This document shows positions 3,210 to 10,199 of a stretch of DNA of 64,000 nucleotides, in pieces. Numbering within the stretch: position 1 is the stretch's first letter; each line of letters begins with the position of its first letter. The DNA is from a virus: positions 14,685 to 78,684 of the IMG/VR virus record IMGVR_UViG_3300028007_000001; one strand, written 5' to 3'. The notes beneath the pieces are model-generated. The model was not told where the DNA came from. It saw only the letters and a list, made by a program, of their open reading frames with translations, and made no database searches. The position numbers were made by a program, and so were the translations under genes.

Positions 3210-3228
3210 GAGGAAATCTGGAAGGGGA

Positions 3229-4329
3229 CTAGCCGAGTGTGTCCCCTTCCAGAGAGGCAATGAAGTCCTCGTATTCCTCCCGAGTAACGAGCATGTCTCC
3301 GATCCACATCATGTCTCCGCTGCTGTTTCCGTTCTGCTGAGCGGAAGAGCGTCGGTCTCGGATGCGGATGCCAGAACCGAGTTCGCCGTTCCGGGCTGCC
3401 TTGGCGGCACGCTGCCCGTAGTAGGCGCCCATCGTCAGGCTTACGTCCTTCGGAGTTTCGGAATCCTTCTTGCTCTTAGATCTGGGCTTGGGCTTCGGCT
3501 CTGCCTTGGAGACAGGAGTGCGATCGCCCATGATCAGTTGACGCTCCAAGACCTCCGAAGGAGTCATTACCGGGTAACCCCTCGACTCGTACTCGAAATC
3601 CCAGGCCGGGATTTTGGACGTTCTCACCTTCGGTCGGAATCGGTAGCGATTCAGGATCCTCCCTTCTTTCACGACCAAGAGGCGGTTTTCCGAAACAACA
3701 GACACTGATTCGAACTCGATCTCGGGCTGCAAGTTCTCCAACGCCCGAGGGTTCGAAGCGAACAGAAGGTTTCCTCTCTTCGTCCACCCGAGCGTGATCT
3801 GCCTGCCGTACGTTCTGGCGATGTGCAGAACGGCGGGGTTCGTGAGCCGGGTGTAGATGGTAACCATCGACCCGTAGACCTTGCTCAACCCGCCAGTCGG
3901 ACCCCACCTGTTGACGGCAGCGAAGATGGCCTCGCTGTCCACTTCGGTCTTCGGGTCGAACCGGCCTGTCTTCGCCAGGATCTCTTCGTGGTTGGAGATC
4001 ACGCCGTTGTGAACGCCCACGATGTTCTGGTGAACGATCGGGTGGTTGTTCAGCATGTTCTGGGGAGAGCCGTGAGTGGCCCACCGAGTGTGGCCCACGA
4101 CCCAACGAGGGTTCGTCTCAACCCCGGTGATCACGTTGTCGATCGCCTGGTCGGTGTCGGCTCGACCCCGGTGCTTTTCCACCGTCACGCCCTTGTCGGG
4201 CACGTACTGCATCCACCCGTAGGCGTGCGGGCCTTGGGCAACCGAGTCGATGAACATGAGAGCCATGATCTCGTACGTCGGAATGTCTTCCGGCTCGCCG
4301 CCGTAGCAGATCCCTAGAAGTCGACACAT
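3229..4329 (-). CDS. class II (Ntn) glutamine amidotransferase, copy 1
   Basis: MCRLLG with Cys2 nucleophile, GHTRWATHG, HNGVI, VDSE; low-complexity C-terminal tail. Confidence 0.9.
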   Translation of the reverse strand: MCRLLGICYGGEPEDIPTYEIMALMFIDSVAQGPHAYGWMQYVPDKGVTVEKHRGRADTDQAIDNVITGVETNPRWVVGHTRWATHGSPQNMLNNHPIVHQNIVGVHNGVISNHEEILAKTGRFDPKTEVDSEAIFAAVNRWGPTGGLSKVYGSMVTIYTRLTNPAVLHIARTYGRQITLGWTKRGNLLFASNPRALENLQPEIEFESVSVVSENRLLVVKEGRILNRYRFRPKVRTSKIPAWDFEYESRGYPVMTPSEVLERQLIMGDRTPVSKAEPKPKPRSKSKKDSETPKDVSLTMGAYYGQRAAKAARNGELGSGIRIRDRRSSAQQNGNSSGDMMWIGDMLVTREEYEDFIASLEGDTLG

Positions 4330-6254: not shown

Positions 6255-6902
6255 ATGCCGAAGGGCAAGACTCGATCCAGCCTGAGCCTTCGTGAGCGCC
6301 GAGAGCAGGCGTTCCGAATGTACGAGCAGGGCTACACGCCCACCGAGGTAGCCAAGGAACTCCGGGTGTCTCGGGCGACGGCCCACACGTACAAGAAGAA
6401 GTACGAAGAGTCGATCGAGGAAGAGGCTCGACTCCATCCCGGCCTCATGCGGGATGTGCTTGCCAACACGATCCGGAGCCTCCGGGAACTCGATCGCATC
6501 CGTGCTGACGCCTGGAAGCGGCTGAACGAGAAGAGGGTCCACAAGTACGTGGAGTGCCCGGACTGCGGATCTGACTTCGACGTGGTGGTTCGTGAGCCTG
6601 CGAGCGACCAGAGCCGGGTGCAGTATCACAACGTTCTGATCCGAGCGCAGGAGCAGAGGGCCAAACTCTTCGGCGTCCTGGGGGTGAAGCAGGAAGTCTT
6701 CGTGATGATCACCCAGGTCAAGTTGGTGCAAGACCGGATCCTCAACTTCTTGCAGAACAACCTCTGCCCTCACGATCGAGAGAACCTAGAACGTTTCCTT
6801 CTTTCGGATCCTGAGATCGTGGCCTACATGGCGAGTCCGGGATACATCGACGCCGAGGTCGTAGGCGAGATCGCTGCGGAATCCGAATTCGGATCTGAGT
6901 AG
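6255..6902 (+). CDS. terminase small subunit-like HTH protein with CPDC insertion
   Basis: N-terminal HTH (YTPTEVAKELRVSRATAHTY), helical core and RAKLFG motif typical of actinophage TerS. Confidence 0.65.
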   Translation: MPKGKTRSSLSLRERREQAFRMYEQGYTPTEVAKELRVSRATAHTYKKKYEESIEEEARLHPGLMRDVLANTIRSLRELDRIRADAWKRLNEKRVHKYVECPDCGSDFDVVVREPASDQSRVQYHNVLIRAQEQRAKLFGVLGVKQEVFVMITQVKLVQDRILNFLQNNLCPHDRENLERFLLSDPEIVAYMASPGYIDAEVVGEIAAESEFGSE

Positions 6903-6914
6903 TGGGGTAAAGAA

Positions 6915-6952
6915 GAGACCCCTCCCGAGGTCGTGGGTTCGGGAGGGGTCTC
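6915..6952. terminator. 14-bp stem hairpin between convergent genes
   Basis: GAGACCCCTCCCGA / TCGGGAGGGGTCTC perfect inverted repeat. Confidence 0.8.
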
Positions 6953-7046
6953 AGTGGTGGCGCCGTAGGAAGGTGGTGCGGAGAGGAAGGGGTACGCAAC
7001 CTCACTTCCACCTTCCTTGCCGAACAGCCCCGAGTGACACCTTACA

Positions 7047-7283
7047 TCAATCGAGCGCCGAGGGAAGACCCTCGCCAGGAATTTCGGATTCTTCCACCAT
7101 CCGACCGTAGTGGCGAGCGGCTCGCATCACTCGACGGCACAGCAGGACGAGCCAGAACGACCCCCACGCCACCGCCCCGAAGGTGTAGAGGGGATTGATC
7201 GAGAACGCCACCGCCAGGATGGCGATCCCCACGATCAGCCCGAAGACTGCTGCTACGCCCCCGGCTAGGGCTAGAACTCCCAT
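7047..7283 (-). CDS. small membrane protein (2 TM)
   Basis: Two hydrophobic segments; GGAG RBS. Confidence 0.65.
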   Translation of the reverse strand: MGVLALAGGVAAVFGLIVGIAILAVAFSINPLYTFGAVAWGSFWLVLLCRRVMRAARHYGRMVEESEIPGEGLPSALD

Positions 7284-7284
7284 G

Positions 7285-7584
7285 TCACGCTCCCGTTTCC
7301 TCCATCTGGGTCAGGAAGTCGCACAGGGCATCCACTTCCGCCTGCACGCACTCCTTGACTCGCTCTTCGGACTGTCGGAACCTGCGGGCGGCGTCGTACG
7401 TACTTTCGGAAGACGCCTCCCGGTTGGCCCTCACTCGATGTAGTTCCAACTGCGCTCTCGCCATCTCTTCGATGGCCTGAGACGTAGTGGTTCGGAGTTC
7501 CATCAACTGACGGGCGAACTGACCGCCCTCCGAGTCCAAGAACTCTTGGACGGACTGATCGAACTCGTCGTCTTCCTCGGGCAT
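7285..7584 (-). CDS. hypothetical coiled-coil protein
   Basis: ORF with GGAGG RBS; helical acidic sequence. Confidence 0.65.
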   Translation of the reverse strand: MPEEDDEFDQSVQEFLDSEGGQFARQLMELRTTTSQAIEEMARAQLELHRVRANREASSESTYDAARRFRQSEERVKECVQAEVDALCDFLTQMEETGA

Positions 7585-7622
7585 GGCAACCCCTCCCTGC
7601 GTAGTAGGTACGTAGGGAGAGG

Positions 7623-7889
7623 TTACCTGCGGGTGGTGGTCCGTCGTGAGGAACCCGAGCCGTTGTTCTGGGCCTGCTCTTCACGTACCTGACGGAGAAT
7701 CTGCGACACCCGGATTTCCGAAAGTCCGGAGATGTCTGCGATCTCACGGTAGGTCAGCCCGGCGTTGAATGCCTTGAGCATCCCCTTGAAGAACTTGCGG
7801 CGACTTCTCTCGGCTCTGGCCTCGTCTCGGCTTCGAACTGCGCTGAGTTCGGTGAGACGCTGCCGAGCGGTCTCCTTGCGGTTCGGCAT
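7623..7889 (-). CDS. HTH DNA-binding protein (sigma70-r4-like), candidate repressor/regulator
   Basis: AFNAGLTYREIADISGLSEIRVSQIL; start moved to the ATG with a GGAG RBS. Confidence 0.75.
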   Translation of the reverse strand: MPNRKETARQRLTELSAVRSRDEARAERSRRKFFKGMLKAFNAGLTYREIADISGLSEIRVSQILRQVREEQAQNNGSGSSRRTTTRR

Positions 7890-7982
7890 CTGCGTGCTCC
7901 CTGATTGGCTGCTCGTCTTCAGTTTCTCACATCTCGTCATCCGGATCCAGTTGAAAGTAGATCCGTAGAGAGGATGCTATGC

Positions 7983-8011
7983 ACCATACCAAACTATCGG
8001 AACTTTGTCAA
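7983..8011 (-). promoter_or_regulatory. leftward promoter TTGACA-N17-TATGGT
   Basis: Consensus hexamers on minus strand. Confidence 0.85.
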
Positions 8012-8098
8012 GCGAGACTTTCCGAAACCGATTTCCGAATTCGGATATGGGTACGGGCGGGAGCGCCAGGTCCGAGTTTCCGAATGTCCGATTGCCTC

Positions 8099-8127
8099 TT
8101 GACACACGGAGAACATTCCTATATAGT
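8099..8127 (+). promoter_or_regulatory. rightward promoter TTGACA-N17-TATAGT
   Basis: Near-perfect consensus; no credible ORF for ~460 nt downstream. Confidence 0.88.
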
Positions 8128-8133
8128 GAAGCC

Positions 8134-8570
8134 ACTTGCTAGCCACGCCCCACCGAACCCTCTCTACTCCACTCGGGAGGGGAAGCCGGGAACACCGGGG
8201 AAGGGTGGAACGAAGCAGATCCTCTAGGTATCCGTGGCTCACTGCCGACAGAGGTCGGTGCAAGGGAGAGAGGCGCTGGACTCAAAAGCAGTCCAGTCCT
8301 CTCTCCCAGCACCGGGAACGTCGTTCGGGCGACGTAAAACAGGGGTTAGGCCCGAAGCGGTATCCGAAAGGTTACGTCCCGAAAAACCGAACAAGGTGGC
8401 GTGGAGTGGGAGCGTCACCGAATCTCTGGCGGAATCCCACCCGGCAGAGAGAGAGTTCGGAAGCATCCTGCTAGGTCAGCCGGGCGGTCTAGCAGGTCAG
8501 GTTTATGTTCCGGCGAGGGAGTTGCCCGACCCCAGAAGAAAGGAGCGACGGCTCCATCGGGCACTCAAAA
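8134..8570 (+). ncRNA. candidate large structured RNA / leader of unknown class
   Basis: At least six hairpins and long-range complementarity (8153-8165 with 8448-8460; 8256-8314; 8318-8335; 8467-8496; 8518-8567) between the promoter and the first ATG at 8589. Confidence 0.55.
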
Positions 8571-8588
8571 TTCCGAAAGGGGTACGGT

Positions 8589-9491
8589 ATGACTCGCACG
8601 GACGTTCACGCTCCGAGCAACTTCGATCCTGCTGACTACGAGTACGTCACGTGGTTCTACAAGGGCGAGTGCCCGCAGTTGATTGAGGGCGAACTTCGAT
8701 TTTCGGATCGTCGTGAGCAGGCCGAGCGTCTGCTTTCCGAAAGTGCGTTCCGGGGCAACTACGCCAACCGAGGGAACTGCGATCACTGCGGCGCCTACTT
8801 CCTCTGGGTCACGGTGTGGCGTCACCGCCCGACCAACCAGCACATCGCTGTGGGCGAGATCTGCGCCTCCGAACGTTTCTCTCTGCCTAGCCGGGTGGCT
8901 TTCGAGTTGAAGTACGCCCGAGACCGGGTGGCCGAGGCTCGTCAGCGGGAGCGCCGCTACTCCGAAGTGGTGGAGTGGATGCAGAACGAGTGCCCCGACC
9001 TGATCCCGATCCTCAGTCGAGAGAACATCGAGGATCACCCTGCTTTCGGAAATTCGTTCGTTGCTGACGTTCGTCGGCGGCTGTGGCAGTACGGCCCGCC
9101 TCTGACCGAGCGGCAGGTTGCGGCTCTTCGGAGTGCGAAGCAACGCTCCGAGTCTGTCCAGCAGGAGCGTGAGGAAGAGACATACGTCCCTACGCCTCTT
9201 GGCCGCACGACGTTCGAAGGGGTCGTGGTCAAGACCGATACCAAGGAAAGCGACTACGGCATTCGGCACACGATGATCGTGAAGGTCGAGCAGGGCGAAG
9301 GCGTGTGGCTCTGCTACGTCACCATTCCGAACTCCATCCTTGGGGTGGGTCGTGGAGACCGTGTGCGTCTAACCGCCAAGATCGAGCGGGGTCGTGACGA
9401 ACATTTCGGATTCGGAAAGCGACCGACCCAAGCCGTGGTCGTGGCCCGAGCAGAAGAGGAACGAGCGGTTTCTGCTTCTGCACTTGACTAA
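8589..9491 (+). CDS. hypothetical protein with Zn finger and C-terminal OB-fold-like domain
   Basis: CDHCG...EIC; C-terminal FEGVVVKTD...GDRVRLTAKIER...GFGKRP beta-rich pattern. Confidence 0.6.
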   Translation: MTRTDVHAPSNFDPADYEYVTWFYKGECPQLIEGELRFSDRREQAERLLSESAFRGNYANRGNCDHCGAYFLWVTVWRHRPTNQHIAVGEICASERFSLPSRVAFELKYARDRVAEARQRERRYSEVVEWMQNECPDLIPILSRENIEDHPAFGNSFVADVRRRLWQYGPPLTERQVAALRSAKQRSESVQQEREEETYVPTPLGRTTFEGVVVKTDTKESDYGIRHTMIVKVEQGEGVWLCYVTIPNSILGVGRGDRVRLTAKIERGRDEHFGFGKRPTQAVVVARAEEERAVSASALD

Positions 9492-9512
9492 TCACAAACT
9501 TTGTGATATAGT
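9484..9512 (+). promoter_or_regulatory. promoter TTGACT-N17-TATAGT with TCACAAA-C-TTTGTGA palindrome in spacer
   Basis: Seen directly; a second -10 (TGc TATGGT) follows. Confidence 0.85.
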
Positions 9513-9540
9513 CTGCTATGGTCGTGAGAAAGGGGTACAC

Positions 9541-9894
9541 GTGAATCAGTACGAGGTTGGCGCCATCCTCCGGGTGAAGGCCAGGAGCGAGCAGGACGCT
9601 GTGGATACCGTTCATGGCGCCATCGACCGGGCCAGCCACCTTGACGACGGGACCGGACTTGTCGACGGTGTTGCGTACCGTCCGATTCCGGGTGCCAAGG
9701 TAATCGTGTTCCAGTGGAACACCGATCACGGCGAGTGCTACGAGTGCGGGCGCCCGGCTGCGTTCATGGTGGTCGACGCCGCCGCCCCTCGCCAGTACGA
9801 CCCGTCATACCCCTACAACCTTCGCTGTGCCTTGTGTGCTGCCAACAACGCAGCAGACGGCGAGACCATCCGACGAATCCGGGAGGAAGCATGA
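9541..9894 (+). CDS. hypothetical Zn-finger protein
   Basis: CYEC...CALC; AGGGGT RBS. Confidence 0.7.
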   Translation: MNQYEVGAILRVKARSEQDAVDTVHGAIDRASHLDDGTGLVDGVAYRPIPGAKVIVFQWNTDHGECYECGRPAAFMVVDAAAPRQYDPSYPYNLRCALCAANNAADGETIRRIREEA

Positions 9895-10199
9895 CCGTAG
9901 TGTCCAGACGAGACGGCGAACTGACGGTCGAAGGCGGCACGGTCGAAGAGATCATTCAGAAGATCGTCTTCGAAGAGGGGTGTTCAATCCTGATCACTCC
10001 CGTCACTCTCGCTGACGAGACCGTGACGATCTCGACCCGGATCTCGTACGGCGATCCCGAGCGGGACAACGTGGTCCGGGAAGCGTTCGACTATGCGGAG
10101 TGGGGCAACCATCCGGAGAGTTTCGAGCAGTCTCTCCGGTTCGCCGCTGGCAACCACTACGGAAGCCACGAAGACTTCGAAGACGACGAGGAAGGCTGA
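9891..10199 (+). CDS. hypothetical protein
   Basis: GGAGG RBS, start overlaps previous stop. Confidence 0.7.
   Translation: MTVVSRRDGELTVEGGTVEEIIQKIVFEEGCSILITPVTLADETVTISTRISYGDPERDNVVREAFDYAEWGNHPESFEQSLRFAAGNHYGSHEDFEDDEEG

Follow-up and report, generated by a model that had tools for sequence, protein, structure and literature searches.

Which element occupies the 455 nt that separate a consensus early promoter from the first rightward gene of an uncultured phage, and what might it do to the transcript that carries it? The initial annotation of this locus had proposed a candidate large structured RNA of unknown class, for instance an RNA polymerase-binding or decoy RNA, or else an antitermination or translation-control leader. 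The DNA belongs to an IMG/VR virus record of 81.3 kb with about 59% GC and a completeness estimate of 95%. The window that we analysed is a stretch of 64,000 nt of this record. Identical DNA was found in contigs from two soil metagenome studies, with zero variation between the copies, and a blastn search of the deposited phage genomes in INPHARED (n=50,697) gave no DNA match to the window.

The stretch lies within a 648-nt gap that separates divergent genes, in the region where gene orientation and cumulative GC skew switch. The gap is framed by the following features:

7623-7940, leftward gene of the divergent pair: small sigma-70-region-4/HTH protein
8011-7983, - strand: second promoter, divergent partner of the promoter at 8099-8127
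8099-8127, + strand: sigma-70-type early promoter, TTGACA-N17-TATAGT, 11 of 12 matches
8575-9491, + strand: SD-like GAAAGGGG, start codon ATG 8589 and first early gene (300 aa), coding score +0.295 bits/codon

Promoter-like sites are more frequent here than expected, with three observed in a 3-kb region against 0.6 expected, and the early promoter at 8099-8127 that the initial annotation had pointed out was recovered. The transcript is predicted to start near A8134. Between 8128 and 8589 no further promoter or terminator was found on the + strand, and a scan for hairpins followed by a U-tract yielded no terminator-like site on the + strand of 7000-10000, which leaves the proposed antitermination without a site to act upon. 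Most likely, the first rightward early transcript of this uncultured soil phage carries the stretch as an untranslated leader of 455 nt.

Coding potential was assessed with a codon-usage log-odds model trained on 14 long genes of the window. The real genes score from +0.12 to +0.56 bits/codon, and the ORFs within 8134-8588, taken on both strands, score from -0.08 to -0.39 bits/codon, as off-frame sequence does. Moreover, GC2 equals or exceeds GC3 in the leader ORFs, whereas the real genes of the window show the opposite pattern, and the first positive coding frame appears only from about 8540. Because of their off-frame scores, with the candidate ORFs ranging from -0.15 to -0.39 bits/codon, we rejected the ORFs 8136-8474, 8234-8635 and 8401-8592 as well as the 8505 extension as coding. 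The ORF 8401-8592 (63 aa) starts 19 nt 3' of the ribozyme described below, and its end overlaps the next gene by an ATGA; as a gene it was discarded, with a score of -0.29 and no homologue among 5.8 billion proteins. By our estimate, an open frame of this length occurs by chance in roughly one third of comparable GC-rich stretches. Since the scores are off-frame, the GC2/GC3 pattern differs from that of genes and the ORF 8401-8592 lacks a homologue, the stretch 8134-8588 is non-coding, just as had been noted at first for the sequence between about 8134 and ATG 8589.

A comparison with Rfam, a step that the initial annotation had itself proposed, identified a known family within this leader. 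Using cmscan, we found a pistol ribozyme (Pistol, RF02679) at 8319-8381 on the + strand. Its score of 48.5 bits exceeds the gathering threshold of 34.5, the alignment spans the full model (positions 1-68 of 68), and the E-value amounts to 8.9e-6 when the 64-kb window is searched and to 1.1e-7 for an 801-nt region. The pistol class was reportedly introduced by Weinberg et al. in 2015. It is the sole Rfam family above cut-off in the 64-kb window, and cmscan of the remaining 17.6 kb of the genome returned no family above cut-off. Outside the pistol, the region 7900-8700 contains no above-threshold Rfam 15 family, even with E up to 10. Only sub-threshold matches were obtained there, namely miRNA-type ones at 8256-8314, whose 16-23 bits fall short of cut-offs of 53-100, and one to the lncRNA MEG8_1 (15.8 bits, cut-off 70). 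The genome is without tRNA, and a tRNA/tmRNA search of the leader region was likewise empty. Hence, the view that a non-coding leader with a functional-looking RNA element is present, and that this element is not a tRNA, tmRNA or RNase P RNA, was borne out, while its assignment to an unknown class was not, since the core is a pistol. The helix ACGTCG/CGACGT (8318-8335), which had been counted as part of a new RNA, is P1 of the ribozyme. The anatomy of the element is as follows:

8319-8323/8330-8334, + strand: P1, CGUCG/CGACG, five Watson-Crick pairs
8324-8329 with 8351-8356, + strand: pseudoknot between UUCGGG in the P1 loop and CCCGAA in the P2-P3 junction, 6 of 6 pairs Watson-Crick
8343-8345/8378-8380, + strand: P2, GGG/CCC, three G-C pairs and a non-canonical outer pair
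8360-8365/8370-8375, + strand: P3, GUAUCC-GAAA-GGUUAC, five pairs, one U-U mismatch, GAAA loop
G8376-U8377, + strand: predicted scissile junction of 2 nt between C8375 (last P3 pair) and C8378 (first P2 pair), placed by the Rfam alignment and the family's published cut site

The linker is UAAAACA, A-rich and 7 nt long. In pistols the scissile bond is held by the P3-P2 junction, which has 2 nt and is usually GU (PMC4604425, PMC6154101), and the residues named as catalytic are purine-32, G33 and G40-C41-G42 (PMC6154101). Mapping through the Rfam consensus assigns G8349, G8350, G8357, C8358 and G8359 to positions 32, 33, 40, 41 and 42.

We aligned the window pistol with 11 further pistols from IMG/VR, which had been collected by a pattern scan and confirmed with Rfam, to give a set of 12. 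All 23 invariant columns of this alignment are kept in the window copy, including the AAA of the linker, UUAGGCCC, AGCG and the GU junction. On the pistol structure 92.6% of the cells pair, compared with 77.7% in shuffled alignments and at most 48% when the partners are slid against each other. Changes on both sides of a pair, that is compensatory ones, were found in 8 of the 15 pairs; the pseudoknot, for example, reads UUCGGG/CCCGAA in one case and UCUGGG/CCCAGA in another. P1 and the pseudoknot are 100% paired over nine distinct pistols, with compensatory changes in five pairs. In P2 the three inner pairs covary. No aligned member has a canonical pair at the outermost position, so the G-G mismatch at this place in the window copy is normal for the subgroup. 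On the grounds of sequence and structure together, we are confident that the element is a genuine member of the pistol family.

Taken alone, the pistol segment has a z score of 0.05, a nested-structure energy being blind to the pseudoknotted fold. Forcing P1, P2 and P3 to form costs 6.2 kcal/mol relative to the nested minimum free energy (MFE) structure, against 5.7-8.2 kcal/mol for other pistols, with the pseudoknot duplex contributing about -7.8 kcal/mol. P3 has a pair probability of 0.8-0.9 in isolation and is the weakest P3 of the pistol set. Since other pistols pay a similar cost, the window copy is not handicapped in spite of this weak helix. The ribozyme could nevertheless be slow, given a short P3 of five pairs with a U-U mismatch and a P2 limited to three canonical pairs.

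What does the rest of the leader contribute? The parts on either side of the ribozyme, all read on the transcribed strand, were folded separately and compared with shuffled sequences:

8134-8255, + strand: purine-rich 5' segment of 122 nt, z +0.55, not beyond chance
8256-8314, + strand: near-perfect hairpin of about 25 bp and 59 nt with an AAAA loop region, -43.4 kcal/mol, z -8.5, 0 of 200 shuffles
8382-8466, + strand: Y-shaped domain, closing stem 8387-8392/8455-8460 enclosing two hairpins, -35 kcal/mol, z -3.9
8404-8442, + strand: GTGGGA/TCCCAC hairpin, z -1.2
8467-8496, + strand: hairpin CCTGCTAG.../...CTAGCAGG, then a weak U-rich stretch, z -2.4, fails the terminator scan
8518-8567, + strand: hairpin around GGAGC/GCTCC, the last structure 5' of the ribosome-binding site, followed by AAATTC, not beyond chance

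The last 92 nt (8497-8588) also fold like shuffled sequence (z -0.52). Hence, all the helices listed in the initial annotation are present in the sequence, and only 8256-8314, 8382-8466 and 8467-8496 beat the shuffles. Of about 1,290 windows of 150 nt across the 64 kb, the top 1-2% is reached only by windows with the hairpin 8256-8314, and the other leader windows are average. In the Y-shaped domain the MFE structure makes up 82% of the ensemble and recurs in the MFE structure of the full leader. The 5' segment contains a G-quadruplex motif on the + strand (8175-8204), with five tracts of G3-4 and loops of 1-6 nt; such motifs are not enriched in the 64-kb window, with three found against 5.8 expected.

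These values bear on the original proposal that the whole 455-nt stretch is a single large structured RNA belonging to a new class, which would bind RNA polymerase, act as a decoy, or serve as an antitermination or translation switch. The entire leader does fold better than its shuffled counterparts (z -3.57), in line with the shuffle control that had been suggested, and long-range complementarities exist, some of which exclude each other. However, the reverse strand reaches z -3.75. As both strands fold alike, the signal reflects inverted repeats and not a strand-specific RNA, and it comes mostly from the hairpin 8256-8314, with the Y-shaped domain second; both ends of the leader are shuffle-like. 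The most prominent long-range pairing, a 12/13 complementarity between 8153-8165 and 8448-8460, joins CU/GA low-complexity tracts that occur four times in the leader, and is absent from the MFE structure. For the translation switch, opening the Shine-Dalgarno sequence and AUG (8575-8591) is predicted to cost about 7.7 kcal/mol in the uncleaved transcript and in the 3' product alike, a value within the range of 7-18 kcal/mol for other genes here. A switch of translation that is operated by cleavage is unsupported, since the cost does not change on cutting. With the missing terminator and the lack of homologues reported below, we regard a single large RNA as very improbable.

We favour the reading that the ribozyme cuts the early transcript, and put the probability of this processing reading as a whole at about 0.6. 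Transcription from the 8099-8127 promoter would run through the leader, because no other promoter or terminator is present there. The long hairpin 8256-8314 would fold first and shield the ribozyme from upstream sequence, the pistol would form P1 and its 6-bp pseudoknot and then P2 and P3, and self-cleavage is predicted at G8376|U8377. The 5' product would comprise 8134-8376, about 243 nt, with the long hairpin, the ribozyme body and a 2',3'-cyclic phosphate. The 3' product would be the early mRNA from U8377, with a 5'-OH and a 212-nt leader that holds the Y-shaped domain and two hairpins. The message would thus probably be uncoupled from promoter-proximal sequence and altered in its stability. 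A 5'-OH end is a poor entry for the 5'-end-dependent RNase E and RNase J. By analogy with engineered ribozyme insulators, cutting may stabilise and standardise the message. It speaks for processing that the pistol lies on the strand transcribed from a consensus promoter. The atypical context of the ribozyme and the predicted accessibility of the ribosome-binding site, which is unchanged by cutting, speak against it.

A different product of the same cut can be considered. The ribozyme may make the 5' end of a discrete RNA, either one of about 120-130 nt that contains the Y-shaped domain and ends at the hairpin 8467-8496, or a stable, trans-acting 5' fragment of 243 nt, and the downstream gene would then be reached by read-through only. 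The Y-shaped domain and the hairpin next to it are the only parts behind the ribozyme that beat the shuffles (z -3.9 and -2.4), and hairpins at gene ends of this phage likewise lack U-tracts, so that leader hairpins could mark RNA ends. However, the hairpin 8467-8496 fails the terminator scan and no second promoter serves the gene at 8589. Moreover, neither a homologue nor an Rfam match (E up to 10) turned up for such an RNA, complementarity elsewhere in the genome is lacking, and once the 3' product is folded by itself the Y-shaped domain gives way to a competing long-range helix to the SD/AUG region. We hold a discrete RNA to be rather unlikely. More specifically, the pistol could serve to mature a phage small RNA that has not been described before, be it the 243-nt 5' fragment with its 25-bp hairpin or a Y-domain RNA of about 120 nt from U8377, which would be produced abundantly by the consensus early promoter, would act in trans during host takeover and would have a fate decoupled from that of the message; this we consider distinctly unlikely.

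Perfect GC-rich hairpins of 13-14 bp without U-tracts were observed at 730-763, 3217-3253 and 6915-6952, the last of which begins 13 nt past the stop of the gene 6255-6902. The phage or its host may use such hairpins as terminators or as protectors of 3' ends. Hairpin terminators that lack a U-tract have been discussed for Actinobacteria. The long leader hairpin 8256-8314 is also without a U-tract, having GGAACG on its 3' side, and ends 4 nt before the ribozyme; since the gene-end hairpins share this property, it could mark or protect an RNA end.

The gene behind the leader allows a comparison with relatives. Its product (8589-9491) belongs to PHROG 4265, with 35 matches in the protein collection and 485 IMG/VR contigs, and has no Pfam, NCBIfam or PDB sequence match. 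The conserved N-termini of the homologues start at ATG 8589. Throughout the family C64, C67 and C92 are invariant and H66 is nearly so, and the C-terminus carries an FGFGKRP motif; C64, H66, C67 and C92 likely form a zinc site. A homologue annotated in a Marmoricola MAG hints weakly at an actinobacterial host for the phage.

In the closest relative (L002, 54% protein identity, synteny kept), a promoter TTGACA-17-TATACT ends 29 nt 5' of the ATG, which gives a leader of about 23 nt. A second relative (L004, 45% identity) likewise has a dedicated promoter about 25 nt upstream of the gene. In the third, L005, a spacer of about 75 nt separates the gene from the preceding one. The upstream slot is empty in L002 (2058-2278); in L004 (2159-2446) it is occupied by a 95-aa ORF together with an additional consensus promoter. 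None of these three loci shows an Rfam match, even with E up to 1. A pistol was present in 0 of 48 phage records that carry the 8589 gene, in a search that recovers the window's own. Likewise, blastn found no homologue of the leader in 80 loci with the same downstream gene, and in about 110 fetched loci, including 21 pistol-bearing ones, it matched only the 38-41-nt pistol core. Pistol-anchored pattern scans of IMG/VR, metagenomes and GTDB genomes yielded nothing beyond this core. When the long hairpin was used as a pattern, five matches were obtained in IMG/VR, all due to chance, and the own genome contains neither a second copy of the leader nor complementarity to it elsewhere. We also compiled a statistic of ORF-free gaps (76 relatives, median 55 nt), which was dropped since it is biased by spurious ORFs in GC-rich DNA. 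By these comparisons the parts of the leader outside the ribozyme are orphans and specific to this lineage. As the relatives have short leaders and no pistol, the long leader is a derived, lineage-specific occupant of a variable slot.

Such a slot may also collect sequence without use. The pistol and neighbouring sequence may have been recombined into it as a scar of gene flux, with flanks of 185 and 207 nt that are decayed or random and no adaptive role for the ribozyme, be it active or inactive. The different contents of the slot in L002, L004 and the window, the orphan state of the leader and the shuffle-like folding of much of it agree with this, as does an imperfect direct repeat of 19 nt (8038-8056 and 8569-8587, 16/19 identical) that brackets the promoter and the entire leader. 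Yet all conserved and catalytic positions of the ribozyme are intact, and a hairpin with z -8.5 that abuts the ribozyme is unlikely to be random. Remnants of decayed genes were sought as well, and a tblastn search with the ORFs that neighbour other pistols matched the ribozyme only, leaving no protein remnant. An explanation as a mere scar is in our view improbable. The 19-nt repeat, which has GGGTACGG at its end, may be the trace of an event that placed a cassette, or a chance similarity aided by the TCCGAA motif.

Alternatively, the inverted repeats might act as DNA, as part of a replication origin or as protein sites of the divergent control region, with the RNA folds being incidental. The fold signal is not strand-specific, the region coincides with the switch of gene orientation and GC skew, and TCCGAA half-sites occur in the leader. 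The pistol, however, is strand-specific and lies on the transcribed strand. The hexamer is over-represented 3.8-fold across the genome, and three copies in 455 nt are therefore near expectation. Furthermore, no AT-rich unwinding element was found, and the only iteron-like repeat is a single imperfect pair of 15 nt. We give a role at the DNA level very little credence. As an observation in its own right, TCCGAA/TTCGGA has 222 copies in the window (1-64000), against 58 +/- 6.6 expected from dinucleotide shuffles; examples are found at 8021, 8034, 8040, 8079, 8363, 8456 and 8572, and a palindrome TCCGAATTCGGA lies at 8034-8045 between the divergent promoters. A phage regulator probably binds the hexamer, although copies are scattered across coding DNA as well.

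How does the preferred reading, processing of the early transcript, compare with known systems? Pistols are common in phages and have been known near phage genes since 2015 (Harris et al. 2015, PMC4604425), and the crystal structures 5K7C and 5KTJ have been reviewed (PMC6154101). Clustered hammerheads flank genes in prophages (Perreault et al. 2011, PMC3088659), and ribozymes that flank phage genes are a known arrangement, the purpose of which is unproven (PMC3088659, PMC4604425). The window copy shares with its family the 5-bp P1 with a 6-nt loop, the 6-bp pseudoknot, the 7-nt linker, the catalytic residues, the GU junction and the phage context. It differs from the family in its origin, a GC-rich soil phage and not Firmicutes or gut sequences, in its short P3 with a U-U mismatch, and in being the only ribozyme of its genome. 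It also differs in its place. In 17 other pistol loci the ribozyme follows a stop codon by 0-10 nt in about two thirds of the cases and by 81-193 nt in the rest, and the distance from its 3' end to the next ORF is at most about 30 nt, mostly 13-28 nt. The usual pistol thus directly follows a stop codon and precedes a start codon by about 20 nt, whereas the window copy is found 185 nt behind a promoter within a long non-coding leader, flanked by 185 nt of non-coding RNA on the 5' side and a 207-nt leader on the 3' side. With the ribozyme-punctuated operons of phages it has in common that it lies on an early transcript upstream of a gene, where it would presumably process the transcript into units. 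Unlike these, it is a single ribozyme and not an array, and it separates a non-coding RNA and not an upstream cistron.

The closest engineered parallel is RiboJ, a hammerhead-type insulator placed between promoter and ribosome-binding site, which trims promoter-derived 5' sequence. The window pistol has the same position between promoter and ribosome-binding site and would likewise give a leader with a 5'-OH and hairpins. It differs in that it is natural, belongs to the pistol class and would leave 212 nt on the message, and by this analogy its insulation is putative.

Overall, the locus provides a fresh example of a known element in a slightly unusual context, which is promoter-proximal and purely non-coding. 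Most phage ribozymes sit between genes, where cutting could simply separate cistrons. Here no coding sequence lies upstream, so that cleavage could have no other effect than to remove a non-coding 5' RNA from the message, which would be left with a 5'-OH. This makes the locus a clean natural case for setting the 5'-end chemistry and stability of an mRNA against the release of a separate RNA. For annotation, the claim of a novel large non-coding RNA is replaced by a known family and a few orphan hairpins.

A ribozyme-punctuated arrangement was seen in another GC-rich record. The locus L014 (10500-11671 on the - strand of IMGVR_UViG_2830209180_000001, 61% GC) contains two Rfam-confirmed pistols in gaps between small genes, one of them 7 nt past the stop of an ORF, and possibly a third that is cut off by the end of the locus. 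Each of the two is followed by a short leader with ACCTAGCC before the next start codon, and from this sequence layout the locus reads as a ribozyme-punctuated operon with a shared leader motif. A similar GCTAGCCACGC is present at the region of the predicted transcript start in the window (8138-8148), and a AAAGTTTC-type motif occurs beside the promoters of the relatives L002 and L004.
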